Counted from the first letter of the stretch, positions 37,824 to 57,044 are shown. The stretch is DNA of 64,000 nucleotides from Escherichia coli (GCF_013315695.1 NZ_CP054353.1), one strand, 5' to 3'. Program-made: numbers and translations. Notes: a model not told the origin generated them from the letters alone.

Positions 37824-37976
37824 TATTGGAATGCATTACCCGGAGTGTTGTGTAACAATGTCTGGCCAGGTTTGTTTCCCGGAACCGAGGTCACAACATA
37901 GTAAAAGCGCTATTGGTAATGGTACAATCGCGCGTTTACACTTATTCAGAACGATTTTTTTTCAGGAGACACGAAC

Positions 37977-38513
37977 ATGGCCAGCAGAGGCGTAAACAAG
38001 GTTATTCTCGTTGGTAATCTGGGTCAGGACCCGGAAGTACGCTACATGCCAAATGGTGGCGCAGTTGCCAACATTACGCTGGCTACTTCCGAATCCTGGC
38101 GTGACAAAGCGACCGGCGAGATGAAAGAGCAGACTGAATGGCACCGCGTTGTGCTGTTCGGCAAACTGGCAGAAGTAGCCAGCGAATATCTGCGTAAAGG
38201 TTCTCAGGTTTATATCGAAGGTCAGCTGCGTACCCGCAAATGGACCGATCAATCCGGTCAGGATCGCTACACCACAGAAGTCGTGGTGAACGTTGGCGGC
38301 ACCATGCAGATGCTGGGTGGTCGTCAGGGTGGTGGCGCTCCGGCAGGTGGCAATATCGGTGGTGGTCAGCCGCAGGGTGGTTGGGGTCAGCCTCAGCAGC
38401 CGCAGGGTGGCAATCAGTTCAGCGGCGGCGCGCAGTCTCGCCCGCAGCAGTCCGCTCCGGCAGCGCCGTCTAACGAGCCGCCGATGGACTTTGATGACGA
38501 TATTCCGTTCTAG
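37977..38513 (+). CDS. ssb: single-stranded DNA-binding protein
   Basis: 178-aa protein [44 protein letters not shown] with Gly/Gln-rich tail and C-terminal DFDDDIPF. Confidence 0.98.
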
Positions 38514-38553
38514 AGTTAACTTGTGAGTTATTTGTAAAGAATCCATACGCAGG

Positions 38554-38580
38554 CCCCTGTTAATTCAGGGGTTTTTTGTT
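38554..38580 (+). terminator. rho-independent terminator of ssb
   Basis: cccctg-ttaattc-cagggg hairpin followed by a T-run. Confidence 0.8.
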
Positions 38581-38671
38581 TCTATCGTCGGAAAAAGTGT
38601 CTTGTATAAATTGGTGATTTTTCACATAAAGTGTACCTTGTAATTGTGTAATGTTTATGGGGTGTGAGTGC

Positions 38672-39919
38672 ATGGAAAAGAACTACAGAGTTACAACATT
38701 TGTCATGGATAGTGGCGAGCGCTATTGCATGGTAGTGGATCGTGCTTCTGGGCTTCCCATGTATTACCCCACTCTGTTTCTAACAACTCAAATCCGCAAT
38801 AGAGAGGATGCTTTTTCAACGATGTTGGCGGCGGCTAACAACCTGGTTATGTTGTTACGCTTTGTAGAGAGTCGCGACATTGACCTTGAGCAGCGGTTTT
38901 TGACCAAAGACTTCTTCAAGCCACATGAGCTGGATGATCTGCGAGATTTTGCTCAGTGCAAACAAAGAAAGGGGCCATTAACTGTGTCCTCTACCTCTTG
39001 GTTGGCCGATGCGATGACCGATATCGTTGATAACGGGACACAGCATTCCCGGCTAACAACGTTTGCCAACTATTTACACTGGTATGCGATGCATATCTTA
39101 AAGACGACAGAACTGGAAGTTGTCGAAAAGATCAATGCTATGGCGGCGCAGATAAAGACGCGCCGACCATCTAAAAAGCGCAGAAACCACGACTTACAAG
39201 ACAGGTCATTGAGTGATGTTCAATTGGACGCGCTATTTGAAGTCATCCAGCCTAGATCAGAGTTAAACCCTTTCTCAATAGATGTGCAGCGCCGCAATCG
39301 GCTGATGATCTTACTTCTGTTTTATCTTGGCATCCGAGGTGGTGAATTATTAAATATAAGAATACAGGACATAGATTTTAGCGCTAACAGGATCCGTATC
39401 GTTAGGAGAGCAGATGAACAAGCTGACTCTAGAACCAATGAGCCTAATGCTAAAACTAGAGAACGGCTCTTACCGTTGGCTGAATCCTTAGCTCAAGAAC
39501 TGCATAGTTATATCCTTCAAGATCGCCGGAAAGTCAGAAATGCGAAGAAAAATGACTATCTGTTTGTAACTTACAAGAGTGGACCAACTCTGGGAAATCC
39601 TATCTCCAAAGGGGGATATCATAAAATTTTTTCCGTAGTCAGGTCTATATCACCGCAATTGTATGCAGCGACAGGACATTCGCTCCGCCACACTTGGAAT
39701 CGCAAGTTTTCAGAAAGAATGGATGCCATGAATGAGCAAGTCAGCGAGGAACGCCAAGAGCAACTTCGTTCGTACTTAATGGGCTGGAGAGATGGCTCGG
39801 GAACCGCAGCGACTTACAACAAGCGTTTCATTCGGCAAAAAGGTTTTGAGGCCGCCTTGGCATTACAAGCAGGTAACGGCACTAGCTTGCCAGAGGACTT
39901 CAAGGATGACCATGAATAA
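38672..39919 (+). CDS. tyrosine recombinase 1 of 3 (phage-integrase family)
   Basis: Integrase motifs: box-I Arg region LLFYLGIRGGELLNIRIQDIDF, GHSLRHTW (H-x-x-R) and LMGW...TAATYNKRF (catalytic Tyr). Alternative ATG starts at 38651 and 38657. Confidence 0.8.
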   Translation: MEKNYRVTTFVMDSGERYCMVVDRASGLPMYYPTLFLTTQIRNREDAFSTMLAAANNLVMLLRFVESRDIDLEQRFLTKDFFKPHELDDLRDFAQCKQRKGPLTVSSTSWLADAMTDIVDNGTQHSRLTTFANYLHWYAMHILKTTELEVVEKINAMAAQIKTRRPSKKRRNHDLQDRSLSDVQLDALFEVIQPRSELNPFSIDVQRRNRLMILLLFYLGIRGGELLNIRIQDIDFSANRIRIVRRADEQADSRTNEPNAKTRERLLPLAESLAQELHSYILQDRRKVRNAKKNDYLFVTYKSGPTLGNPISKGGYHKIFSVVRSISPQLYAATGHSLRHTWNRKFSERMDAMNEQVSEERQEQLRSYLMGWRDGSGTAATYNKRFIRQKGFEAALALQAGNGTSLPEDFKDDHE

Positions 39920-41444
39920 CCTCTTACTTGGGTTAGTACCAGAACGAATCCGTGCCAGGGCCAATGGCTACTCTTTTCTGTTGTATGACACATCGTGGAC
40001 ATTGGATAGAAATATCACTATTAATCTTGCTGATATTCACCATTACTTGTCAGATGGGACGCTAGATGGCTGCCTGCGTACACTGGCGTTTTATGCATCC
40101 AATCGTTCTTCTTCTCATACAAAAAATATTCTTGAACGGTTTCAGCACATGCTGCGTGAGACTGACGCGAGAGAAATTACTGATACGGTATTGATTAATT
40201 ATCGGTCGATGCTGTCGCCTGCAACAGAATGGTATCTAGCAACCATCCGTGGCTTTCTTCGATCCTGGCACGAACTGGGCTATCCCGGCATCAGTAAGGA
40301 GGTGAACCGCTTGCTAGATGGCTGGACGCTAAAGGGTAATCGTAAGGGGGATGCGGTTAAGCGCATGGATCCTCAAGAGGGGCCACTGACGGATAATGAG
40401 CTGACAGCGTTTAACGAGGGGGCTGTTCGGGCTTATGAAAAGAGCTTAATTACTATAGCTGAGTTGGCTATAGCACTTGGCACCAGTCATACAGGACGTC
40501 GTCCCATTCAGATCTCGCTGCTTCGTGTGGTCGATGTCCTTTGTGGTAAAAATGGAAAGGGAGAGCCCTTCTATGTGTTGAATGTGCCGCGAGCCAAGCA
40601 GCGCAGCAGCTCTTTCCGAATAAACTTCAAACCATTTGCAATATCACTGGAACTATGGGCAATCCTGAGTGCTCAGGCAAGAAATGCGATTGCGCAGGTT
40701 GAAAATCGTTTGGGGTTTGAATTGCAGGAAGATGACCGGCAGCAAATCCCTCTTTTTCCTGATCTTGATGTGTTAGATGCCGTCCAATCTCCTTATGAAT
40801 TCCGCCAACTGCATGCTACCGACAAACTCCACATTCCCGCCGCAGAGATAACCGACACCCTCCAATACATCGTAGAAAAGTCCGACATCCGGTCGGAACG
40901 TACCGGTGAGCTATTACATATCAATGCTCGTCGTTTTCGTTATACCACAGGCACACGAGCTGCCCGGGAAGGCTTTGGCGAGCTGGTGATTGCGGAACTG
41001 CTTGACCACGCGGACACCCAAAACGCAGGCGTTTACATCAAGAATATCCCCGAGCATGTGAAAAAGCTTGATGAGGCGGTTGGCTTCCAATTAGCACCAT
41101 ACGCTCAGGCCTTTGTCGGGGCACTTGTCGATTCAGAGAGAGACGCGCATCGAGGTAACGACCCTACCAGTCGTATTCGGACCGAAATGGGTCAGGGTGT
41201 TGGTACTTGTGGAGAACATGGCTTTTGTGGTGCCAATGTTCCTATTCCTTGCTACACCTGCATGCATTTCCAGCCTTGGCTGGACGGCCCACATGAAGAT
41301 GTCTATCAAGGACTGCTCAACGAACGTGAACGGGTGAAAGAGATAACTGGCGACATCCAGATTGCTGCCGTACTTGATCGCAGTATTATCGCGCTGGCAG
41401 ATGTGATCATGCGTTGTGCAAAACGTCGTGAAGAGCTTAGTTAA
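39905..41444 (+). CDS. tyrosine recombinase 2 of 3, with C-terminal Cys-rich region
   Basis: Start ATG overlaps the stop of recombinase 1 (translational coupling); ARRFRYTTGTRAA ... LLDHADTQNAGVYIK resembles the R/H-x-x-R ... Y catalytic region; Cys cluster CGEHGFCGANVPIPCYTCMHF. Confidence 0.7.
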
Positions 41445-41460
41445 CAGGGAGCAATAACCA

Positions 41461-43494
41461 ATGGCTGAGATTTTCCTGTTTAAGCCAAAGGCTACGCTGA
41501 CAGCAGCAGAAAACCTTGAAGCATTCATATCCCAGTGCCGAGATCAATTGACTGTATTCGGCTCTGATCTCACTTGGGAAGATCCTGTTTGGCCAAACAT
41601 AACTGTATTTGCCAAGTTGGGCATTATTACGAGAAAACCCATACTGGAAGAGACGCAAGACCCTGCTTTCATTGATTTTGCCAAAGCCTATTTCCGTTAC
41701 CAGCAGGGGCATAGCCTCTCTAGGGCAAAGAATGAAAGTAAAGCCCTCCGTGCGGTTGAGGCGGCTTTGCTTCAAGTAAATGGAAACGCAAATATTGATG
41801 GCCTGTCGATTTCTGTGCTGGATGAAGCAGCTGAATTGGCAAAGCATTACTACTCCGATGGCTCCGCATATCATTGTGGCCGTGAGATTGAGCGGCTGGC
41901 TAAGTTTGTAGCTGAAAACCAGCTTGTATCAAGTGCTGTACAAAATTGGGTCAATCCAATTAAACGTGCAGAGGATAAGAACAAAACGAGCAGAAAGGCG
42001 AAGAAAAATAGGGAAGATAAACTTCCGAGTGATATTGCTCTTAATGCGTTGGCGGAAATTTTTGCCAACGACCCAATTCATGAGCGAGACATATTTACAA
42101 CATCGGTTTTTGCCATGTTGATGTCGGCACCTTCACGTATTACTGAGGTGTTAGCACTGCCTGTGGATTGCGAGGTTTTTGAAACGGATCGTGAAGGGAT
42201 AGAACGATATGGTTGGCGTTTTTTTGCGGGGAAAGGCTATGAGGGTGATATCAAATGGATACCCACCGTGATGGTCGGTATAGCTAAGACAGCCGTAGCT
42301 AGAGCTAGAGTGCTCTCTGAAAATGCACGACAACTGGCCAAGTGGATCGAGAAACACCCGAATAAGTTTTACCGCCATGCTAACTGTCCCAGTGTAGCCG
42401 ATGATGAGCCATTGACGATGAAGCAGGTTTGTATGGCGCTCGGTTTTGCACATTACTCTAAAAAGACGTGCAGGTCGTGTCTTGGTAATCGAGGTTTAGC
42501 TAAAGAGGATGGTGTACATACTCTAAATAGCCTGTGGCAGCACACAATGGCGCGTTTACCGGATGGCTTTCCGTGGTTTGATAAAGACAAGGGAATTAGG
42601 TACAGCAATGCCTTGTTTGTACTGAACGTAAATCAGTTCCACGGGAACAGAGGATGCATACCAGTTGAGTTACATAAGCCAACCAATAATTTCTTCAACA
42701 GTGATCTGACGCCTCGTCTGTCCTTGAAAGGAAAACATGCCAGTATCTTTGATCGCCATGGTTACCATGCTGTAAACGGAGAGCCGGTGAAATTAACCTC
42801 ACATCAGGCTCGACACCTGCTCAACACCATTATCCAGCGCGGTGGCCTGTCAAACTTGGAAATTGCCAAGTGGTCGGGGCGGGCAGATGTGAAACAGAAT
42901 CGAACTTACAACCACATGACTGAATACGAACTGGTTGGCATTGCTGAACGCCTTGATCCCACAACAGCGCTATTTGGGCCTGCTGGCGAGGTGGCAAAGC
43001 ATCTGCCCGTGACTATGCAGGAGTTCAATACCTTAGAGCATGCCGCAGTCCATGTGACGGAGTATGGCTACTGTGTGCATGATTACACCATGAGTCCTTG
43101 TGAGAAATTCCGAGATTGCGTCAATTGTACCGAACAGGTTTGCATCAAAGGCGATGATGCTGAAAAGTTGGATCGCATTAAGATACGTCTGGAGAAATTA
43201 GAGCGACTGTTTTTTCTTGCTGACGCAGCAGTGGAAAGTGGTGAGATAGGAACTGATCGCTGGTATCAGTACCACAAGAAAACTGTTACCCGGCTTCGTG
43301 AACTAGTGGCTATTTTAGAGAATCCAGACATTGAAAATGGTGTCCAGATTAAGCTCCGGGGCAATGATTTCAGCCAGCTTCGCCGTGTTGTCGCAAAGAC
43401 GTCTATTGTGGCCATCGAGCAAAAAGGCAAAGAAAGTGAAGAAGCTGTGATGTTAGATGATTTGACAACTTTGTTAGGAGGTGGCCTTGGCTAA
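41461..43494 (+). CDS. tyrosine recombinase 3 of 3 (677 aa), with C-terminal Cys-rich region
   Basis: LTSHQARHLLNTIIQRGG ... WSGRADVKQNRTYNHMTEYE (H-x-x-R-H ... Y); Cys cluster YGYCVHDYTMSPCEKFRDCVNCTEQVC; begins 16 bp after recombinase 2. Confidence 0.75.
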   Translation: MAEIFLFKPKATLTAAENLEAFISQCRDQLTVFGSDLTWEDPVWPNITVFAKLGIITRKPILEETQDPAFIDFAKAYFRYQQGHSLSRAKNESKALRAVEAALLQVNGNANIDGLSISVLDEAAELAKHYYSDGSAYHCGREIERLAKFVAENQLVSSAVQNWVNPIKRAEDKNKTSRKAKKNREDKLPSDIALNALAEIFANDPIHERDIFTTSVFAMLMSAPSRITEVLALPVDCEVFETDREGIERYGWRFFAGKGYEGDIKWIPTVMVGIAKTAVARARVLSENARQLAKWIEKHPNKFYRHANCPSVADDEPLTMKQVCMALGFAHYSKKTCRSCLGNRGLAKEDGVHTLNSLWQHTMARLPDGFPWFDKDKGIRYSNALFVLNVNQFHGNRGCIPVELHKPTNNFFNSDLTPRLSLKGKHASIFDRHGYHAVNGEPVKLTSHQARHLLNTIIQRGGLSNLEIAKWSGRADVKQNRTYNHMTEYELVGIAERLDPTTALFGPAGEVAKHLPVTMQEFNTLEHAAVHVTEYGYCVHDYTMSPCEKFRDCVNCTEQVCIKGDDAEKLDRIKIRLEKLERLFFLADAAVESGEIGTDRWYQYHKKTVTRLRELVAILENPDIENGVQIKLRGNDFSQLRRVVAKTSIVAIEQKGKESEEAVMLDDLTTLLGGGLG

Positions 43495-43906
43495 GCATCT
43501 GGACAATAGAGACATTAACGCCATCGTAAATCTAATTCGAGGATGGAAGGAACCAAAACTGTCCTGGTCAGCAATTTGTGAGGCGGCAGAACCATTGGTC
43601 GGAAAGTTGCCGTCAAGACAGTCCCTTAATGCACATGAGGCAATAGTGACTGCCTATCAAACAAAGAAAGAGGCGCTTAAAGGCCGTGGCCCCAAAAATC
43701 CGCGTCCAGCTAGTTTGAACATTGCAGCCGCGAGGATTGTGAATCTTGAAAGCGAAATCGAAGAGCTTAAGGAAGAGAACCGGAGGTACAAACAACAGTT
43801 TGTGATCTGGCAATACAATGCATACAAATATGGAATGACAGAACATCAACTTAATGCGCAGCTGACAAAGATTGACCGTGAGCGCTCTGATGGAGAAAGA
43901 AGATAG
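43481..43906 (+). CDS. small recombinase-associated protein (141 aa, predicted coiled coil)
   Basis: ORF start overlaps the recombinase-3 stop by 14 bp; charged, helix-prone sequence (LESEIEELKEENRRYKQQF); placement is like TnpC of Tn554-type elements. Confidence 0.6.
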   Translation: MALAKHLDNRDINAIVNLIRGWKEPKLSWSAICEAAEPLVGKLPSRQSLNAHEAIVTAYQTKKEALKGRGPKNPRPASLNIAAARIVNLESEIEELKEENRRYKQQFVIWQYNAYKYGMTEHQLNAQLTKIDRERSDGERR

Positions 43907-43981
43907 TTGCTGAGTACGATATCGAGGGTACATTTCTCTGTGTAGGGGTAGTTATTTACAAAAAAATAGGAGAATAATTAA

Positions 43982-46900
43982 ATGGTCAAACCAAACTGGG
44001 ATAACTTTAAAGCTAAATTTAGTGAGAATCCTCAAGGTAATTTTGAGTGGTTTTGCTACTTGTTGTTCTGTCAAGAATTCAAAATGCCCGCAGGTATATT
44101 TAGATATAAGAATCAATCTGGTATCGAAACTAATCCAATAACCAAAGATAATGAAATTATCGGTTGGCAATCTAAATTCTATGACACAAAATTGTCGGAT
44201 AACAAAGCTGATCTTATAGAAATGATTGAGAAAAGCAAAAAGGCTTATCCAGGATTAAGTAAAATCATTTTCTATACTAATCAAGAGTGGGGGCAGGGGA
44301 GAAAGTCCCATGAACCTGAAGGCGATAAGAACGCTGATAATTATTTGGAAACTGTCGGAAATAGTAACGATCCCAAAATAAAAATTGAAGTTGATCAGAA
44401 AGCATATGAGTCGGGTATCGAAATAGTATGGAGAGTTGCTAGTTTTTTTGAATCACCGTTTGTAATAGTTGAGAATGAAAAGATTGCTAAACATTTCTTC
44501 TCCCTTAATGAAAGCATCTTTGATTTATTAGAAGAAAAGCGCAAGCACACAGAAAATGTTTTATATGAAATTCAAACCAATATAGAGTTCAAAGACAGAA
44601 GTATTGAAATTGACAGACGACATTGTATAGAACTTCTACATGAGAATCTAGTTCAGAAAAAAATTGTCATCGTCAGCGGAGAAGGTGGGGTTGGAAAAAC
44701 AGCAGTTATCAAAAAAATTTATGAAGCAGAAAAACAATACACTCCTTTCTATGTCTTTAAGGCTAGCGAGTTTAAAAAGGACAGTATTAATGAGCTATTC
44801 GGTGCGCATGGCTTAGACGATTTCTCTAATGCTCATCAAGACGAATTACGTAAAGTCATAGTCGTAGATTCTGCTGAAAAGCTTTTAGAACTGACCAATA
44901 TCGATCCTTTTAAAGAATTCCTGACTGTTTTAATAAAGGATAAATGGCAGGTTGTTTTCACAACCCGTAACAACTACTTGGCAGATCTGAACTATGCTTT
45001 CATAGATATTTATAATATAACTCCTGGAAACTTAGTAATAAAGAACCTTGAACGCGGCGAGCTAATAGAGTTATCTGATAACAATGGATTTAGCCTTCCT
45101 CAAGATGTTCGATTATTAGAACTAATCAAAAATCCATTTTATCTAAGTGAATATTTGAGGTTCTATACCGGTGAAAGCATCGATTATGTGAGCTTCAAAG
45201 AAAAGCTTTGGAATAAGATTATTGTCAAAAATAAACCTTCTCGGGAGCAGTGTTTCTTAGCGACTGCTTTTCAGCGGGCTAGTGAGGGCCAATTTTTTGT
45301 CTCCCCGGCATGTGATACTGGAATTTTAGATGAGTTAGTTAAAGACGGAATTGTCGGCTATGAAGCTGCTGGTTACTTCATTACACATGATATATACGAG
45401 GAATGGGCATTAGAAAAGAAAATTTCTGTCGATTATATCCGTAAAGCGAACAATAACGAGTTCTTCGAAAAAATAGGAGAATCACTTCCTGTTCGCCGTA
45501 GTTTTCGGAATTGGATATCTGAACGATTGCTTTTAGATGACCAGTCCATAAAGCCTTTTATCGCAGAAATAGTCTGTGGAGAAGGAATATCAAATTTTTG
45601 GAAAGACGAGTTATGGGTAGCTGTCCTTCTTTCCGATAATTCAAGCATATTTTTTAATTACTTTAAAAGATATTTACTTAGTAGTGACCAGAATCTATTA
45701 AAAAGACTTACTTTCTTATTGAGGCTTGCTTGCAAGGACGTTGATTACGATCTGCTTAAACAGTTAGGTGTAAGTAATTCAGATCTGCTTTCCATTAAAT
45801 ATGTTCTTACTAAGCCTAAGGGAACTGGTTGGCAGAGTGTGATCCAATTTATCTATGAAAATTTAGATGAAATAGGGATCAGAAATATTAATTTTATACT
45901 TCCTGTGATTCAGGAGTGGAATCAAAGAAACAAAGTGGGTGAAACGACTCGATTATCTAGTTTGATAGCCCTAAAATATTATCAATGGACTGTAGATGAG
46001 GATGTCTATTTATCCGGAAGGGATAATGAGAAAAATATTCTGCATACGATTCTTCATGGGGCGGCCATGATTAAACCTGAAATGGAAGAGGTTTTAGTTA
46101 AGGTTCTTAAAAATAGGTGGAACGAGCACGGTACCCCATATTTCGACCTTATGACCTTAATCCTTACTGACTTAGATTCATATCCGGTTTGGGCATCTCT
46201 CCCGGAATATGTTCTACAATTGGCAGATCTGTTCTGGTATCGGCCACTTAAAGAAACAGGCGAACGTTATCACAGTATGGATATTGAAGATGAGTTCGGT
46301 CTATTTAGGTCTCATCACGACTATTATCCAGAAAGTCCATATCAGACTCCTATATATTGGTTACTACAATCACAGTTCAAAAAAACAATAGACTTTATTC
46401 TTGATTTTACGAACAAGACAACGATATGTTTTGCCCACTCCCATTTTGCTAAAAACGAAATTGAAGAAGTCGATGTCTTTATTGAAGAAGGAAAGTTTAT
46501 AAAGCAATATATATGCAATCGTCTGTGGTGCTCATATCGAGGAACACAGGTCTCTACCTACTTACTTTCATCAATTCATATGGCATTGGAAAAATTTTTT
46601 CTTGAGAATTTTAAAAATGCAGACTCGAAAGTGTTGGAAAGTTGGCTTCTTTTCTTGTTAAGAAATACCAAGTCAGCTTCTATTTCTGCAGTAGTTACGA
46701 GTATTGTACTTGCATTCCCTGAGAAGACATTCAATGTAGCTAAAGTACTATTCCAAACAAAGGATTTCTTCCGTTTTGATATGAATCGAATGGTTCTAGA
46801 CAGAACACATAAAAGTTCATTAATCTCCCTCAGGGATGGCTTTGGCGGTACAGATTACAGAAACTCTTTGCACGAAGAAGATAGAATTAAAGCTTGCGAT

Positions 46901-48745
46901 GATGTGCATAGAAATACTTATCTTGAAAATCTTGCCTTGCATTATCAAATTTTCAGGAGTGAAAATGTAACGGAGAAAGATGTCATTGAAAGGCAACAAG
47001 TGCTCTGGGGTATTTTCGATAAATACTATAATCAGCTTCCAGATGAAGCTCAAGAAACTGAAGCCGATAAGACGTGGAGGCTCTGCTTGGCAAGAATGGA
47101 TCGGCGAAAGATGAAAATAACTACCAAGGAGAAAGATGAAGGGATTGAGATATCATTCAATCCTGAGATTGACCCTAAACTAAAGCAATATAGTGAGGAA
47201 GCAATAAAGAAAAACTCCGAGCATATGAAGTATGTAACGCTGAAACTATGGGCAAGCTATAAAAGAGAAAAGGATGAACGTTATAAGAATTATGGAATGT
47301 ATGAGGACAATCCGCAAATTGCTTTACAAGAGACCAAAGAAATAATAAAAAAGCTTAATGAGGAAGGGGGTGAAGATTTCAGACTATTAAATGGTAATAT
47401 ACCAGCAGACGTTTGTTCTGTATTACTGTTAGATTACTTTAATCAGTTGAATAATGAAGAGAGAGAATATTGTAAAGATATTGTTCTAGCATATTCTCAA
47501 CTTCCGTTGAAGGAAGGCTATAATTATCAGGTACAAGATGGGACAACCTCGGCAATTTCAGCCTTACCCGTGATTTATCATAATTATCCAATGGAAAGGG
47601 AGACTATAAAAACAATATTACTTTTGACACTGTTTAATGACCACTCTATTGGAATGGCAGGTGGGCGCTACTCAGTATTTCCTAGTATGGTGATTCATAA
47701 ATTATGGCTAGACTATTTTGATGATATGCAGTCTCTATTGTTTGGTTTTTTGATTTTAAAGCCAAAGTATGTAATTCTTTCAAGAAAAATCATTCATGAA
47801 AGTTATCGTCAAGTAGACTATGACATTAAAAAAATAAATATTAATAAGGTGTTTTTAAATAACTATAAGCATTGCATATCAAATGTCATCGATAATAAAA
47901 TATCTATAGATGATTTGGGAAGTATAGATATAGTTGATCTACATATTTTGAACACAGCTTTCCAATTAATTCCAGTTGATACTGTTAATATTGAACATAA
48001 GCAATTGGTTTCCTTAATTGTTAAAAGATTTTCTACAAGCCTATTGTCAAGTGTTCGAGAAGATAGAGTTGATTACGCTCTTCGGCAGTCTTTCTTGGAA
48101 AGATTTGCCTACTTTACGCTTCATGCGCCCGTGAGCGATATTCCCGATTATATAAAACCTTTTCTTGATGGTTTCAACGGTTCAGAGCCTATTTCAGAGT
48201 TATTTAAAAAATTTATTCTCGTCGAAGATAGATTAAATACTTACGCCAAATTTTGGAAGGTTTGGGATTTGTTTTTTGATAAAGTGGTTACTTTGTGCAA
48301 GGATGGAGATAGGTATTGGTATGTAGATAAAATTATAAAAAGTTACCTTTTTGCTGAATCTCCATGGAAAGAAAACTCTAATGGTTGGCACACATTTAAA
48401 GATAGCAATAGTCAATTCTTTTGCGATGTATCTAGGACTATGGGCCATTGCCCTTCAACTTTATATTCTCTTGCCAAATCTTTGAATAACATTGCCAGTT
48501 GCTATCTTAATCAAGGTATAACCTGGCTTTCAGAAATGTTGTCGGTTAATAAAAAGCTATGGGAAAAGAAATTGGAAAATGATACTGTTTATTTTTTAGA
48601 ATGTTTGGTTAGGCGGTATATTAACACTGAGCGTGAGCGAATTAGACGAACCAAACAGTTGAAAGAAGAGGTCTTAGTAATATTGGATTTTTTGGTAGAG
48701 AAAGGATCTGTTGTTGGTTATATGTCACGGGAAAATATTCTGTGA
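43982..48745 (+). CDS. large STAND-type P-loop NTPase with N-terminal Mrr/PD-(D/E)xK-like domain; candidate Avs-like antiviral sensor
   Basis: 1587-aa ORF, about one third GC. Walker A IVIVSGEGGVGKTAV; Walker B VIVVDSAEKL; sensor-1-like VVFTTRN; N-terminus FEWFCYLLF...SGIETN...IIGWQSKFY...KIIFYTNQEW resembles Mrr catalytic-domain motifs; long C-terminal region of more than 1000 aa. RBS-like GGAG upstream. Confidence 0.75.
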   Translation: MVKPNWDNFKAKFSENPQGNFEWFCYLLFCQEFKMPAGIFRYKNQSGIETNPITKDNEIIGWQSKFYDTKLSDNKADLIEMIEKSKKAYPGLSKIIFYTNQEWGQGRKSHEPEGDKNADNYLETVGNSNDPKIKIEVDQKAYESGIEIVWRVASFFESPFVIVENEKIAKHFFSLNESIFDLLEEKRKHTENVLYEIQTNIEFKDRSIEIDRRHCIELLHENLVQKKIVIVSGEGGVGKTAVIKKIYEAEKQYTPFYVFKASEFKKDSINELFGAHGLDDFSNAHQDELRKVIVVDSAEKLLELTNIDPFKEFLTVLIKDKWQVVFTTRNNYLADLNYAFIDIYNITPGNLVIKNLERGELIELSDNNGFSLPQDVRLLELIKNPFYLSEYLRFYTGESIDYVSFKEKLWNKIIVKNKPSREQCFLATAFQRASEGQFFVSPACDTGILDELVKDGIVGYEAAGYFITHDIYEEWALEKKISVDYIRKANNNEFFEKIGESLPVRRSFRNWISERLLLDDQSIKPFIAEIVCGEGISNFWKDELWVAVLLSDNSSIFFNYFKRYLLSSDQNLLKRLTFLLRLACKDVDYDLLKQLGVSNSDLLSIKYVLTKPKGTGWQSVIQFIYENLDEIGIRNINFILPVIQEWNQRNKVGETTRLSSLIALKYYQWTVDEDVYLSGRDNEKNILHTILHGAAMIKPEMEEVLVKVLKNRWNEHGTPYFDLMTLILTDLDSYPVWASLPEYVLQLADLFWYRPLKETGERYHSMDIEDEFGLFRSHHDYYPESPYQTPIYWLLQSQFKKTIDFILDFTNKTTICFAHSHFAKNEIEEVDVFIEEGKFIKQYICNRLWCSYRGTQVSTYLLSSIHMALEKFFLENFKNADSKVLESWLLFLLRNTKSASISAVVTSIVLAFPEKTFNVAKVLFQTKDFFRFDMNRMVLDRTHKSSLISLRDGFGGTDYRNSLHEEDRIKACDDVHRNTYLENLALHYQIFRSENVTEKDVIERQQVLWGIFDKYYNQLPDEAQETEADKTWRLCLARMDRRKMKITTKEKDEGIEISFNPEIDPKLKQYSEEAIKKNSEHMKYVTLKLWASYKREKDERYKNYGMYEDNPQIALQETKEIIKKLNEEGGEDFRLLNGNIPADVCSVLLLDYFNQLNNEEREYCKDIVLAYSQLPLKEGYNYQVQDGTTSAISALPVIYHNYPMERETIKTILLLTLFNDHSIGMAGGRYSVFPSMVIHKLWLDYFDDMQSLLFGFLILKPKYVILSRKIIHESYRQVDYDIKKININKVFLNNYKHCISNVIDNKISIDDLGSIDIVDLHILNTAFQLIPVDTVNIEHKQLVSLIVKRFSTSLLSSVREDRVDYALRQSFLERFAYFTLHAPVSDIPDYIKPFLDGFNGSEPISELFKKFILVEDRLNTYAKFWKVWDLFFDKVVTLCKDGDRYWYVDKIIKSYLFAESPWKENSNGWHTFKDSNSQFFCDVSRTMGHCPSTLYSLAKSLNNIASCYLNQGITWLSEMLSVNKKLWEKKLENDTVYFLECLVRRYINTERERIRRTKQLKEEVLVILDFLVEKGSVVGYMSRENIL

Positions 48746-48840
48746 TGTAGTTGAAAATAATAATTTTAATGAGAGCTTTTCCAATTTAGGCTCCAGGGAT
48801 TGGAGCCTTTTTATTATCGAAAAGATTAATATCTTATAAG

Positions 48841-49059
48841 TCAATCAGTAAAACGCAGCAAAGCTCGTTGCTCTTGAATGTTCACTCCGTGATAAATTCT
48901 TTGATTACCACATAAATAACAAGAACAAGCACAAGGGGTGCAGTAAATTTTCCCTACAACTTTTTCAGTTTTAGCCAACGCAATTCGATATGTTTTTCTC
49001 TTAGATTTTAACCGAGATATATGATGACGACGCCATGCCCGATTTCTAACCATTTCCAT
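48841..49059 (-). CDS. small basic Cys-rich ORF (72 aa), possible zinc-ribbon protein or gene remnant
   Basis: ORF with RRHHISRLKSKRK and C-x-x-C-x-C...C; lies between the convergent NTPase gene and the 273-aa gene; coding status uncertain. Confidence 0.25.
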   Translation of the reverse strand: MEMVRNRAWRRHHISRLKSKRKTYRIALAKTEKVVGKIYCTPCACSCYLCGNQRIYHGVNIQEQRALLRFTD

Positions 49060-49283
49060 TCACTCCAATTTTCTACCGCGGTGTTATACCGCGCCCGTAT
49101 CAATCTTTGGAGTTCGATATCGATCTGACCTTTCATGAATACCTCGGAATTTATCAATAAAGTGAGTGCTATATCATAGCTTATGGGATGAAAGTTTGAT
49201 ATTTAGCACTTTTCAGCTTTAGGTAAAGCTGTCCTCAATAAAGCTAATTTCTTGTTTATTAATGGAATTTCTATGTGGAAGTG

Positions 49284-50105
49284 TTAGAAATCCTGTTTTA
49301 CTTTATCCATCGTTAAAACTTTACTTATTATATAAGGATCATAATTTCTTATACTCATAAGGCAATTTATCAAATTGGAAACGTGGCTATCATCAGGTAT
49401 AAGTATATATTTAATATCATCGAAAGAAAAACCAATGCCAAATTCAGAGAATTTTTTACTTAAGACGGCCTTCTGGTTAGGTTCCACCACTCGCTCTAAA
49501 TTTAGGCTAGGCCATAAATCGCCAACAAACGGATGCGGTACATATCTCCATTCTTTTTCGTCAGCGTAGATATAATTCTCAATGGTTTTTTCGTTCGTCC
49601 TTTCTAATTTCCCTTTATAATTTTTCATATAGCGTAATAAATTATAAAGGTCAGCGTACTCTTCTTTAAGGCTTTCAAAATACTTACGCTCTTTATTATC
49701 AAGGATATGCCTTTTCGACCATAGCGGAATTAACGCATCCTTTAGTTTTCTAATTCTTTTATTATACTTTGAAAATAATTCACTGCCTTGATTCATGTAT
49801 AGAACGGGATGGAGATCATTTTTCTCAGCCCATTCTTTTGTTAACCCAAATCCAAATTCACCATATTTTCCACTATGATCTTTAATCTGAGAAAGCTTGA
49901 TGTCACAGAATGAAACCATTGGTACTGCGAAATTTCTTCTTCCTTTTACTCCGACTATGCGTTCACGGGCAAGAAATGGTTTAAAATAGAGTTCTGTTAA
50001 AATGCTATAGAATGCCTCTTCATTTTTAGTAAAGTGAAACAACGTTGTTGGATGTAAACTATTAACTGCTTGTATAACTGTTTCTTGGTTTTCTATAGCA
50101 CTCAT
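49284..50105 (-). CDS. AT-rich hypothetical protein (273 aa), possible abortive-infection or defence-associated protein
   Basis: Clean ORF convergent with the NTPase gene; no family identified with certainty from sequence alone (LFHFTKNEEAFYSIL N-terminal motif). Confidence 0.6.
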   Translation of the reverse strand: MSAIENQETVIQAVNSLHPTTLFHFTKNEEAFYSILTELYFKPFLARERIVGVKGRRNFAVPMVSFCDIKLSQIKDHSGKYGEFGFGLTKEWAEKNDLHPVLYMNQGSELFSKYNKRIRKLKDALIPLWSKRHILDNKERKYFESLKEEYADLYNLLRYMKNYKGKLERTNEKTIENYIYADEKEWRYVPHPFVGDLWPSLNLERVVEPNQKAVLSKKFSEFGIGFSFDDIKYILIPDDSHVSNLINCLMSIRNYDPYIISKVLTMDKVKQDF

Positions 50106-50512
50106 ATATTAACTGTTCCATAGTGTAAAACCTGACTTAGCAAAGGTTATCATACTAGTCTTTGTACTGTAAGCACACTTGGTTTAATTCCACGCACTTT
50201 TTGAGATTTCCGGTTTTTTGATCTCTTACCAAAATCTATGCCAGATTGAATCAAAGGTCCGAGCTGGGTCACCAAAAAAAGTAAAATTATGCACTTTGAT
50301 AGATTATATTTTAACTAAATTCTTTACAGTTAAATCATTTCTTATGCCTTAGTTTCTGATAAAAAAGGTTTTTTTTCACGATTTATAAGTATCAGGTTAT
50401 GTGAACCGTTCTGATTTGTCGTTAAAACAATAGGTTATATTGTTTTAAGGTGGATGATTAAAGCATCTGCCAGCCATAAAAAAGAAGCCTCCGTTTTGGA
50501 GGCTTCTACATA

Positions 50513-50794
50513 TCAAGTCAAAATCATTGGCCATTGTGGCGGTGTCTGATTCATCTCTTCTATCATCACCGACTCGATGTTGTGCCAGATGGCGGTGATA
50601 TCCGCCATTGTGATGCCAAGCAACCCCATTGCGAACCAGCAGGCAGAAACCACGCCCAGACCGCTGCTGATCACTGCAAGCCCGACATAATCAGACCGAC
50701 GAAAACGGATGTTGAGTGTGCTGGCCAGAAACATCATTACGGCACTAAGAAGTTGCCAGCGAAGAAGAACCACGCCAGTGGTGAGGGTAGCCAT
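50513..50794 (-). CDS. yjcB: small inner membrane protein YjcB
   Basis: 93-aa hydrophobic protein starting MATLTTGVVLLRWQLLSAVMMFLA; hairpin terminator aagcctccgttttggaggctt downstream. Confidence 0.85.
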   Translation of the reverse strand: MATLTTGVVLLRWQLLSAVMMFLASTLNIRFRRSDYVGLAVISSGLGVVSACWFAMGLLGITMADITAIWHNIESVMIEEMNQTPPQWPMILT

Positions 50795-51223
50795 CAAACA
50801 ATTCCTCTGAAAAGAGCCGATGCCTCGGACAGCGCGGCGTTGTTCACGGGAGGCGTGATACAATCTGGCTATCGCGGGGCTTGCAGAACACAAAAAAGAA
50901 ACACTCTGTTTGTTTCATTAATTTTGTGAACTATATCACAATTGATTGTTTGTTAGCCAGATTAGGCCGTGACTTTTATTGCCGTACAGATTATGTGTTT
51001 TTTCAGCGGCATTAAGGGTATATCTTCCCACCGCCTCTGCATTCCTGTAGGAAATTAGTTTTGAATATCAATGAATTATTTTTATTCAGGTGACGATTAA
51101 AAAGGTATCAATTTCAAATCAGGCAAAAGTGCTATTTATACCGTAAGATTTATCTAAAGACGTCGATAACCAGGGTTCTCGCCTTGCAATGACCGGGTAT
51201 AAACAAGCAGGAAATTGATAGCA

Positions 51224-52810
51224 ATGAGTCATCGTGCACGACACCAATTACTGGCGTTGCCGGGCATTATCTTTTTAGTTCTCTTTCCCATCATTCTGTC
51301 GCTATGGATTGCCTTCTTTTGGGCAAAATCAGAAGTGAATAATCAGCTCCGAACCTTTGCTCAGCTGGCGTTGGATAAATCTGAGCTGGTCATTCGTCAG
51401 GCAGATTTAGTGAGCGATGCAGCTGAACGCTATCAGGGGCAAGTTTGCACCCCAGCCCATCAAAAGCGAATGTTGAATATTATTCGTGGCTATCTTTATA
51501 TTAATGAATTGATCTATGCCCGTGATAACCATTTTTTATGCTCATCGCTGATAGCGCCTGTAAACGGCTATACGATTGCACCGGCCGATTATAAGCGTGA
51601 ACCTAACGTTTCTATCTATTATTACCGCGATACGCCTTTTTTCTCTGGCTATAAAATGACCTATATGCAGCGGGGAAATTATGTGGCGGTCATCAACCCT
51701 CTCTTCTGGAGTGAAGTGATGTCTGATGATCCGACATTGCAATGGGGTGTATATGATACGGTAACGAAAACCTTTTTCTCGTTAAGCAACGAGGCCTCGG
51801 CAGCAACGTTTTCTCCACTGATTCATTTGAAGGATTTAACTGTACAAAGAAATGGCTATTTATATGCGACAGTTTATTCGACAAAACGCCCAATTGCGGC
51901 CATTGTTGCGACTTCATATCAACGTCTTATAGCGCATTTTTATAATCATCTTATTTTTGCGTTACCCGCCGGTATTTTGGGGAGTCTTGTTCTGCTATTA
52001 CTCTGGCTACGTATTCGACAAAACTATTTGTCTCCCAAACGCAAATTGCAACGCGCCCTCGAAAAACATCAACTTTGCCTTTATTACCAGCCAATAATCA
52101 ATATCAAAACAGAAAAATGTATCGGGGCTGAAGCATTGTTACGTTGGCCTGGTGAGCAGGGGCAAGTAATGAATCCGGCAGAGTTTATTCCGCTGGCAGA
52201 AAAGGAGGGGATGATCGGACAGGTAACTGATTATGTTATTGATAATGTCTTCCGCGATCTGGGCGCATACCTGGCAACACATGCCGATCGCTATGTTTCT
52301 ATTAACCTGTCGGCCTCCGATTTTCATACGTCACGGTTGATAGCGCGAACCAATCAGAAAACAGAGCAATACGCGGTGCGTCCACAGCAAATTAAATTTG
52401 AAGTGACTGAACATGCATTTCTTGATGTCGACAAAATGACACCAATTATTCTGGCTTTCCGCCAGGCTGGTTACGAAGTGGCAATTGATGATTTTGGTAT
52501 TGGCTACTCTAACTTGCATAACCTTAAATCATTGAATGTCGATATTTTGAAAATCGATAAATCGTTTGTTGAGACGCTGACCACCCATAAAACCAGTCAT
52601 TTGATTGCGGAACACATCATCGAGCTGGCGCACAGTCTGGGGTTAAAAACGATCGCTGAAGGCGTCGAAACTGAGGAACAGGTTAACTGGCTGCGCAAAC
52701 GCGGCGTGCGCTATTGCCAGGGATGGTTCTTTGCGAAGGCGATGCCGCCGCAGGTGTTTATGCAATGGATGGAGCAATTACCCGCGCGGGAGTTAACGCG
52801 CGGGCAATAA
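51224..52810 (+). CDS. pdeC: c-di-GMP phosphodiesterase (CSS sensor domain plus EAL)
   Basis: 528-aa protein starting [19 protein letters not shown]; EAL-domain motifs ([20 protein letters not shown]). Confidence 0.92.
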
Positions 52811-55618: not shown

Positions 55619-57044
55619 TAATGCCAGTCAGTTAAGCAACTGACTGGCTCTTTTTCGGGGCTGTGGGGTATTTCCAGGGCCTCTCCTTTACCACTCTCGG
55701 GAAGGCCCTTTCCCTTCTTGTCGGTAATTTCACAAGTTGTCCCATACTTGCAAGATCGCGCATCAGCTCCGGTATACGTCCCGGTGAAGCGCCCTGCAAT
55801 GTCATCAGCATTCTCATCACCATTCCGCATGATTCTGAGAAACTCAGTTGATTCGGCCAGTAACCTTTCAGATGTTCCGCCATTTTAATCATCTGATATC
55901 TCACCAGATTATAAGCCAGTAAGACACCCCACAGCTCTTGCTCCACAAGCTCCGGTTTTTTACTTCTCAGCGTCAGCCTGCTCAGTTGCATCGTCTGTTT
56001 TATCTCCCTGTATCCCAGTTCGATTTCCCAGCGATGACTGTACAGATCCGCCATTTCTCCTCCGGGGAAGCGCATGGCGTCCGTCATCGACGTCAGCAGA
56101 TGGCAGACTTTTCCTTTGCGCGTCACGGTCAGCAGGCGGGCTGTCACTTCATTTCCCAGTCCCGGCCACTTTTTTCGTGCCTGCGGGCTGGTTTTCAGCT
56201 TCACCAGATGATCGCCTTTACCCAGTTTTCTGATCTCTTCATATTGCGCTCCCTTTCTGAGAGGTATCATCCAGTGGCGGTGTTCTCCCGCCAGGCTCCA
56301 GGCATTTAACAGTCCCAGTGAGTAATAACCTTTATCCATTAACGTCAGAGTGTTATCGCCGGTTTGTTCTATAAGTTGCTCAGCAAGCTCATTTTCGCTG
56401 TTCTTCATCGTGCCGAAGGCTGCAGCCGTCAGCAGATGGCTGGTCAGTTCCATCTGGCAGACCATTTTGACCTGCGGGTAGAGCGCCGGGTTCCCGGCAT
56501 GTGTCTGGCGGGGGAAGGCTGCATCGTTCTCTGGTGTATCCGGTGTGCGCCAGAACACACCATCGATGGCCAGCAGGGTCAGGCCGCACCAGTGCGGATG
56601 CGGCGTGGCGTTATGCCAGAGCTGCGCTGTTTTCGTGAACACGCGGCGGACAGCCTCACTTCCCAGGCGCTGGCGGGCCTGAATAACGGCACTGGGGGCA
56701 ACGAAGGGGCGATTGCCCGGCAGCATGATGTCCAGGCGATTCACAATCTGGTGAAGAGGTTCTTTACGCTCAAGCGCCATGCCAACAATACACCAGACCA
56801 TCATTTCGAGGGGAAGACGGCGCTTGCGTAGCGTTACAGTACCTGATTCGGCAAGGCAACGAGAGATGAGTTCGGGGTCGAGGTAATCCCCCAGAGAAGT
56901 CAGTGGGTTACGCAGAGAATCGTAACGGGATACCAGATCAAGAGCCTGTCCAATGTGCATAAAAAAATCCGGAAACAAGTGAGCGTTTCCGGATTCTTAC
57001 ACAGCCACTGGATCGGTCAACTGATCCTTAACTGATCGGCATTA
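55619..57044 (-). mobile_element. IS4 insertion sequence (1426 bp) with 13-bp target duplication GTGGCAATGGCTG
   Basis: Imperfect terminal inverted repeats TAATGCCAGTCAGTTAAGCA / TAATGCCGATCAGTTAAGGA; direct repeat at 55606..55618 and 57045..57057; encodes a DDE transposase. Confidence 0.9.
55632..56960 (-). CDS. insG: IS4 transposase
   Basis: About 442-aa DDE transposase ([16 protein letters not shown]...); the track ORF extends 6 codons further upstream. Confidence 0.9.

Follow-up and report, generated by a model that had tools for sequence, protein, structure and literature searches.

The stretch analysed here, 64,000 nt of Escherichia coli DNA (GCF_013315695.1, NZ_CP054353.1; the whole of it is called the window below), carries an insert of 11,901 bp (window 38512-50412) that interrupts the ssb-yjcB junction of strain K-12. 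Four co-directional recombination genes, ginA to ginD, open the insert and are followed by avs4, and a small cysteine-rich gene (orf72) and a gene of the AbiGi family lie on the opposite strand (Table 1). The interval is very probably an integrative island of the GInt class, in which ginABCD forms the recombination module, the anti-phage protein Avs4 is the payload, and the DNA encoding the C-terminal tip of SSB is the target. An initial annotation of the window had already placed approximately 11.9 kb between ssb and yjcB against the K-12 gene order, and a base-by-base alignment with the empty site of K-12 MG1655, in which yjcB starts 98 bp past ssb, bears this out and gives the exact borders. 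The six open reading frames lie where they had been placed. The island ends (38590-50470) were each approximately 60-80 bp off, and the insertion point is inside the last ssb codons rather than in the ssb-yjcB intergenic region.

The insert is bordered by a 7-bp direct repeat, CCGTTCT, which emerged from the alignment with the empty site. The K-12 site reads ...GACATTCCGTTCTGATTTGTCA..., whereas the window reads ...GATATTCCGTTCT|AGAGTTAAC... at the left junction and ...GTGAACCGTTCT|GATTTGTCG... at the right junction. The SSB protein (...DDDIPF) is kept and the ssb stop codon changes from TGA to TAG, the TAG being derived from the element. SSB remains intact after integration because the element brings its own stop codon and a terminator hairpin. 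Four plasmid ssb sites and elements from three other genera share this core; at the three loci outside E. coli (Pectobacterium, Psychrobacter, and Pantoea), the left attachment site reads ..ATTCCGTTCT... In the circular junction reconstructed for four variants, the core lies between AGGT(T/A)A, from the right end of the element, and T(T/A)ACCT/TTAACT, from its left end, two arms that form an imperfect inversion. Short imperfect inverted repeats of 19-23 nt, which include the conserved left-end motif TGTAAAG, lie in subterminal positions and are candidate binding sites. The right end is 93.5% identical in the copies on an ETEC plasmid and in Pantoea vagans, which are described below. Base composition follows the same partition: the GC fraction is 0.53-0.57 at 35.0-37.7 kb, where core genes precede ssb, and 0.42-0.51 in the recombinase genes, drops from approximately 0.46 to approximately 0.35 near 43.8 kb, and stays at approximately 0.30-0.38 between 43.75 and 50.5 kb, in agreement with the AT-rich cargo noted initially.

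Table 1. Features of the ssb-yjcB interval (positions in the window)
Feature	Position	Strand	Evidence and remarks
ssb, target gene	37977..38513	+	NCBIfam SSB, 360 bits; RefSeq ssb1; comparison with K-12; last codons (Pro-Phe and stop) overlap attL
attL core (left CCGTTCT)	38505..38511	.	Also at plasmid ssb sites, in Pectobacterium, Psychrobacter, and Pantoea, and in published ssb-targeting GInts
GInt left end	38512..38671	+	Motif ..TTACCT/TTAACT..TGTAAAG kept across variants
Terminator-like hairpin followed by a T run	38551-38574	+	Just past the new ssb stop; conserved across E. coli variants (two diverged elements)
ginA, tyrosine recombinase	38672..39919	+	PF00589, E 5.8e-15; phrog_1 integrase; box I Arg (GIRGGEL), box II HxLRH, C-terminal Tyr
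ginB, divergent integrase	39906..41444	+	NCBIfam NF041502 'site-specific integrase', 677 bits against a cut-off of 350
ginC, 677-aa recombinase-like protein with Cys-rich module	41461..43494	+	R226, H448, R451, H452, W471, R474, and Y483 conserved in a very large family
ginD, accessory protein, 139 aa, coiled-coil-like C-terminus	43487..43906	+	Only weak leucine-zipper/ZapB-type matches
avs4, AVAST type 4 STAND NTPase with N-terminal nuclease, 1587 aa	43982..48745	+	NCBIfam, PADLOC, and PDB match
G+C-rich terminator-like hairpin	48788..48808	.	Between avs4 and the convergent minus-strand genes
orf72, 72 aa, basic, Cys-rich (CTPCACSCYLC)	48841..49059	-	Between avs4 and the AbiGi-like gene; unannotated
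AbiGi-family gene, 273 aa	49284..50105	-	PF10899, E 1.4e-24; PADLOC AbiGi, 1.6e-44; phrog_13416, 3e-98
GInt right (3') end, AT-rich, GC ~0.32	50106..50405	.	Terminates ..ATCAGGTTATGTGAA directly before the core
attR core (right CCGTTCT)	50406..50412	.	Followed by the original ssb stop and K-12-like downstream sequence
yjcB, flanking core gene	50513..50794	-	RefSeq annotation of a record 100.0% identical to window 37900-51300

The four gin open reading frames are intact in the window and were called at 38651-39919 (422 aa), 39792-41444 (550 aa), 41461-43494 (677 aa), and 43481-43906 (141 aa), all on the plus strand; RefSeq starts ginA, ginB, and ginD further downstream, at 38672 (415 aa), 39906 (512 aa), and 43487 (139 aa). 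They had been described as translationally coupled, which holds for ginA/ginB and ginC/ginD (overlaps of 14 and 8 nt, respectively) and fails for ginB and ginC, which are separated by a 16-nt gap. A four-gene gin module is common to six elements from five genera, and ginD is conserved in all six elements compared. The description of the first three products as tyrosine recombinases is borne out only in part, with decreasing firmness along the operon. GinA is a clear case; in a profile built from six orthologues, its GIRGGEL and GHxLRH motifs align with box I and box II of the XerA/XerC-like structures 4A8E and 5HXY. The Pfam match of GinB to PF00589 is marginal (independent E value 0.015, over box II) and its score for the NCBIfam integrase family is well past the cut-off; inspection of the alignment revealed the conserved motifs TGRRP, RRFRYT, and LLDH..VY.

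A relation of GinC to the recombinases emerges only from a deep family profile, and as a single sequence it yielded no significant match in NCBIfam, Pfam, or PDB-sequence searches. Its family is large (1,760 clusters at 50% identity, E up to 0.001), and in an alignment of 60 sequences sharing 28-55% identity, R451 and Y483 are invariant, whereas R226, E229, H448, H452, W471, and R474 are conserved in at least 90%. Among PDB entries, the deep profile aligned best with the XerC-like recombinase 4A8E; the E value of 0.015 is statistically marginal, but the match is positionally coherent: PsRisEv pairs with GLRVSEL, sHQfRHyLnT with PHQLRHSFAT, and ..NraY with ..TQIY. With R226, H448, R451, H452, R474, and Y483 at the recombinase catalytic positions, the full catalytic set is apparently retained in the GinC of this lineage. 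Past the tyrosine lies a conserved cluster of cysteines and histidines (H531, C538, H540, C547, C553, and C556), and GinB has a similar Cys-rich stretch. One representative of the GinC family is 1194 aa long, with the GinC part at 521-1194, and may be a GinB-GinC fusion or an artefact of gene calling.

The cargo begins approximately 75 bp past ginD. A scan of its proteins with defence-system models returned matches to Avs4 and AbiGi. The 1587-aa STAND NTPase of the initial annotation is indeed present and was identified as Avs4 by three routes: the NCBIfam equivalog NF041815 (2066 bits against a cut-off of 1500, residues 5-1587), the PADLOC Avs4 model (2361 bits), and chain A of PDB entry 8DGF ('ATP-binding protein Avs4', 1587 aa), which is matched over residues 1-1587 with 3629 bits. 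Residues 1-306 are 100% identical to this chain, and the bit density is equal over the full-length match. The protein has a Walker A motif (GEGGVGKT), and nSTAND1, NB-ARC, and AAA-type Pfam domains match at 212-361, each weakly. Entry 8DGF is the cryo-EM construct of EcAvs4, reportedly from the work of Gao et al. (2020, 2022). The window protein is essentially EcAvs4, for which a structure has been solved, as judged for the full length from the bit score.

The 273-aa protein, initially listed as unknown, is an orphan member of the AbiGi family. It shares the AbiGi domain PF10899 with the lactococcal AbiG system, which consists of AbiGi and AbiGii, and differs from that system in that no AbiGii gene accompanies it and in that its score against the NCBIfam AbiGI equivalog is 45 bits, whereas the cut-off is 300. 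No other protein of the island fits any PADLOC or NCBIfam Abi model, and the sole neighbour of the gene is orf72. Homologues with 41-65% identity are likewise solitary: one is found in a lytic-phage-like replication module, one beside a Lamassu-like cluster in Enterobacter, and one in a tail-gene hotspot of a P2-like prophage, and none of these three loci has an Avs4 or AbiGii neighbour. The idea that AbiGi-like genes are general companions of Avs4 was rejected on account of these loci. A further candidate, an RNA partner within the 540 bp downstream of the AbiGi-like gene, was also rejected; this region contains no Rfam match at E values up to 0.1 and no real tandem repeats, and a small protein gene lies there. 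In a survey of ADP-ribosyltransferases, AbiGi (PF10899) is a poorly studied ADP-ribosyltransferase (ART)-like family near DarT, and a 2026 review states that a structural match was not found for lactococcal AbiGi or AbiGii. In a 26-sequence alignment of the family, S65, E183, and E185 are invariant and R47 is conserved in at least 90%, residues that would fit a motif set of the R-S-ExE type. One homologue with an AbiGi domain is fused to HNH nuclease domains (PF01844 and PF14279).

The remaining cargo gene, orf72, has no RefSeq annotation in any of the E. coli records inspected. A copy in the GInt of E. coli Y5, which has an entirely different cargo, shares 64% amino-acid identity with it; between the two, 19, 16, and 39 substitutions fall on codon positions 1, 2, and 3, respectively, with no indels, a pattern indicating that orf72 evolves as a coding sequence. 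Approximately 70 nt upstream of it are also conserved. The protein matches phrog_4499 (E 5.7e-16) and is represented by 12 protein clusters in Enterobacterales. In an Enterobacter island that lies at the ssb hotspot and carries AAA_13/FRG/PIN_8 cargo, orf72 occupies the end facing yjcB. A role as a core GInt gene was considered and rejected: the gene is absent from the elements of Pectobacterium, Psychrobacter, and Pantoea ananatis, and its absence from these three distant GInts implies that it is lineage-restricted or cargo-associated.

The island is absent from K-12 and from most other E. coli. A search of 5,426 complete E. coli genomes matched the flanks in 5,425 and at least 80% of the interval in 357, such that approximately 6.6% carry the island and a conserved core-genome origin does not apply. 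When the modules were searched separately in E. coli, gin was found in 379 genomes, avs4 in 358, and the AbiGi tail in 359. Together with the duplicated attachment core and the presence of Avs4, this distribution bears out the initial view of an integrative element delivering an anti-phage module.

Related elements share the recombination module and the position of the island, with uvrA-ssb directly to the left of gin in E. coli Y5, Pectobacterium, Psychrobacter, and Pantoea ananatis, and they carry other cargo. In E. coli Y5, the gin genes are 87% identical to those of the window at the DNA level and the cargo is DRT3a/b plus Hachiman. At the protein level, the GinC of Pectobacterium brasiliense is 66% identical and accompanies a SIR2-STAND protein (Avs5-like), that of Psychrobacter is also 66% identical and accompanies a Y4jQ/response-regulator/PNP trio (Detocs-like), and that of Pantoea ananatis is 75% identical and accompanies a Lactamase_B/MComp1/AAA_23 cluster. 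In the last species, past the candidate attR core (..GAACCGTTCT) at approximately 19160-19240, AGAGTTGATCTATGAATTATCTGTAGCG resembles the left end of another GInt; a remnant of a second element may lie in tandem at the same site.

Two copies reveal how unevenly the parts of the element have diverged. Compared with window 38512-50412, the ETEC1702 plasmid is 85-88% identical over ginA-C and approximately 97-98% identical over ginD, avs4, the small-ORF (open reading frame) region, and the AbiGi gene, a step in identity that implies a recombination breakpoint near the ginC/ginD boundary. In Pantoea vagans (JPKP01000005.1, 8651-15823), a decayed copy lies beside ssb; its left end leads into 310 nt from the start of ginA, which are joined directly to the final 192 nt of ginD, and this ginA'-ginD' fusion implies that the recombination module was deleted. 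From avs4 through the small ORF and the AbiGi-like gene to its right end, this copy is 93-97% identical to the E. coli element (approximately 95-97% for the cargo block), which suggests that the element recently crossed between genera and afterwards lost its recombination genes. From these comparisons, cargo blocks appear to have been exchanged between GInt backbones, the histories of backbone and cargo being different.

The persistence of the segment from ginD through avs4, orf72, and the AbiGi-like gene to the right end, at 93-98% identity on diverged gin backbones and also in the gin-deleted Pantoea vagans copy, might suggest that the three cargo genes form one system, for example, with the AbiGi-like protein or orf72 modulating Avs4, and the nearly equal numbers of E. 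coli genomes with avs4 and with the AbiGi tail point in the same direction. However, this co-occurrence arises because the genes are tightly linked on one young element. The AbiGi-like homologues stand alone at three loci without an Avs4 neighbour, orf72 also occurs with DRT3 plus Hachiman and with AAA_13/FRG/PIN_8 cargo, there without Avs4 and AbiGi, and avs4 is convergent with the two minus-strand genes, with a terminator-like hairpin in between. Moreover, Gao and colleagues reportedly handled Avs4 as a single-gene system. A three-gene system is therefore improbable.

The island is also found on plasmids. The best chromosomal match to the window, at 100% identity, is strain MSB1_4I, which also has the element on an 82-kb F-type plasmid, where the proteins bear identical accessions and the order is ssb-[GInt]-DUF905-parB-psiB-psiA (leading region). 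The junctions of the plasmid copy read GACATTCCGTTCT|AGAGTTAAC and GTGAACCGTTCT|AACGAAAG; on the element side they agree with the chromosomal junctions, whereas the flanks differ, which implies that the element inserted site-specifically at another target, one that has only the sequence coding for the SSB tip in common with the first. In PLSDB, 38 plasmids carry the gin module (32 from Escherichia, three from Salmonella, two from Klebsiella, and one from Citrobacter), 27 of which are predicted to be conjugative. All four plasmid copies inspected, which are of the same GInt or a diverged one, lie directly after a plasmid ssb; they include the copies in NZ_LR898876.1 (2247-14724; F-type leading region), on a multi-replicon plasmid of Salmonella Dublin, and on an IncC plasmid of Klebsiella oxytoca. 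Plasmid ssb genes end with the same sequence, and hence the element also inserts in the leading region of conjugative plasmids.

The intercellular transfer route of GInts was left open by Bardaji 2017 and Hochhauser 2023, and plasmid ssb targets are absent from the main text of the former. On the basis of the plasmid copies, it is plausible that the island spreads between cells by hitch-hiking on conjugative plasmids via plasmid ssb. The opposite possibility is that it is a fixed, immobile remnant spread only by vertical descent and by homologous recombination of its flanks; in agreement with this, 362 of the 394 matching records are more than 99% identical, the gin-deleted derivative exists in Pantoea vagans, and insertion sequences break some copies. 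This explanation is nonetheless quite unlikely: the four gin genes of the window are intact, the element also resides on plasmids of Salmonella, Klebsiella, and Citrobacter, and its occurrence in identical form at the chromosomal and F-plasmid ssb of one strain requires site-specific insertion rather than flank recombination.

Assignment of the island to the GInts draws on the borders, repeat, gene content, protein identities, population distribution, plasmid copies, and cargo swapping presented above. As defined by Bardaji 2017 (Sci Rep 7:46254), a GInt consists of a ginABCD operon, cargo that starts from the ginD stop codon, and a short AT-rich 3' end, with imperfect direct repeats flanking the whole. 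Six such elements were reported at the end of ssb 'without altering the corresponding product', and the repeats listed in Table S3 of that study, GTGCCGTTCT (Opitutus), CCGTTCTAAT/CCGTTTTGAAT (Ralstonia), and CCGTTTTTAATT (Shewanella), lie, as does the CCGTTCT core of the window, on the sequence coding for the SSB tip. The largest and most divergent protein comes third, a gene order that also fits GInts. Furthermore, Hochhauser 2023 (PLoS Genet 19:e1010694) described 41 integration hotspots in E. coli, of which #39 is yjcB-ssb, and the supplementary table of that work lists hotspot 39 of strains PPECC42 and SJ16 as occupied by a GInt of 12,000/12,001 bp with seven genes and AVAST_IV. GInts were recognised there by an E value below 1e-5 to a GInt integrase and by the same organisation.

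Several points weigh against the assignment to the GInts. GinB and GinC lack a statistically significant tie to the recombinase fold, the 4A8E match of GinC included, and searches of PDB sequences with either protein, as a single sequence or as a shallow profile, returned nothing meaningful. Probabilities below 1% were obtained when GinA was compared with GinB and GinC by hhalign, a result attributable to the shallowness of the profiles. The AlphaFold2 models are too poor to use, with a mean pLDDT of 53.6 for GinB and 55.5 for GinC and values below 50 in the putative catalytic regions. Published GinC is said to lack the first arginine (Bardaji 2017) or the whole RHRY set (Idola 2023), whereas the family examined here keeps an arginine at the box I position, which implies either that this lineage differs from the type elements or that the motif assignment is off. 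Finally, homology to the Pseudomonas type elements rests on the BLAST-based classification of Hochhauser.

It is highly improbable that the vehicle belongs to another multi-recombinase class (a strand-biased circularising element (SE), with the order intA-tfp-intB-srap, RIT, Tn554-like, or a Gamma-Mobile-Trio (GMT) island), even though two or three proteins resembling tyrosine recombinases are a feature of every one of these classes, a small accessory protein is present in some, and protein 1 has a weak GmtY match of 17 bits: the large non-canonical protein is second in SE and third here, as in GInts, RIT elements bear long terminal inverted repeats and have exactly three recombinases without a fourth gene, whereas a fourth conserved gene is present here and the only inverted repeats are the short subterminal ones, Tn554 has two recombinases only, the GmtY score compares with a cut-off of 340 bits, the NCBIfam search revealed neither GmtZ nor GmtX, and the ssb-end target with its CCGTTCT repeats agrees with published GInts.

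As a GInt-class island, the element would use GinABCD to recombine the site of its circularised form with the DNA encoding the conserved C-terminal tip of SSB (..D-I-P-F-stop), and strand exchange would proceed by staggered cuts within or next to CCGTTCT. By analogy with published GInt work, it would leave as a circle, the predicted junction of which reads ...ATCAGGTTATGTGAACCGTTCTAGAGTTAACTTGTG...; in Pseudomonas GInts, all four gin genes are needed for excision and integration (Bardaji 2017), and the same requirement would be expected here. The identical copies at the chromosomal and plasmid ssb of one strain lend indirect support to such excision and integration. The functional payload would be Avs4. 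This protein is activated by phage portal proteins, and its tetramers activate the N-terminal nuclease (PMC11897194); the version in the window would, in the same manner, bind the portal, tetramerise, activate its nuclease, and abort infection. Circle excision, the dependence on four gin genes, and portal sensing are thus carried over from publications on other GInts and on EcAvs4.

The cargo had initially been singled out as the best candidate in the window for an undescribed or poorly characterised system. This does not hold, as publications already cover GInts as the vehicle, hotspot #39 as the site, EcAvs4 as the main cargo, and the three in combination. The island confirms existing knowledge, namely that the end of ssb serves GInts as a landing site for interchangeable defence genes, and provides no new system. 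What is really uncharacterised is only the 273-aa AbiGi-like protein and the 72-aa open reading frame, which the initial annotation had missed. The former belongs to a large, poorly studied family with ART-like conserved residues and recurs in defence hotspots. It is possible, though doubtful, that the AbiGi orphan would be a stand-alone anti-phage or abortive-infection effector with an ART-type site (R47, S65, E183-x-E185) that moves among phage, prophage, and GInt defence hotspots, that orf72 would be an accessory factor of the enterobacterial GInt lineage (a regulator or directionality factor), and that the element would hop onto conjugative plasmids via SSB-tip DNA. Such movement through plasmid ssb, if true, would offer a concrete answer to the question of how integrase-only defence islands spread between cells.

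Elsewhere in the window, three further features were noted. Compared with the near-identical strain AF3, the window has an additional 768 bp at 21696-22463, with a 9-bp duplication; this insertion encodes InsA and InsB and is an IS1 copy inside dinF. According to the annotation of a near-identical record, which is colinear here with three mismatches, the interval from ghxP to yjcE contains a transposase gene of the IS4 family (approximately 55632-56978). The annotation of a near-identical record also places a gene for a 'SopA family protein' between malM and ubiC (approximately 13739-15319).

With respect to known systems, no difference from EcAvs4 was detected in the window protein, which has the same length, is matched over its full extent, and passes the NCBIfam Avs4 equivalog. 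The island has the same flanking genes and is of the same type as those at hotspot #39 of Hochhauser, where other GInt cargos are found (Fig 3D of that study); the site was occupied in 38 of 1,292 genomes (2.9%) in that survey, compared with the approximately 6.6% of 5,426 genomes that carry this particular island, and only AVAST_IV was called there, not the AbiGi-like gene. From the GInts of Bardaji, the element differs in its exact 7-bp repeat, where imperfect repeats of 10-17 nt were published, and in the box I arginine of its GinC family, which the type GinC is said to lack. It has in common with them four co-directional 5' genes, cargo right after ginD, an AT-rich 3' end, short direct repeats, and an ssb-end target that leaves SSB unchanged. 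The core CCGTTCT is shared with the published ssb-targeting elements of Opitutus and Ralstonia, and, as in the GInts of Bardaji, the cargo is variable and often defensive.

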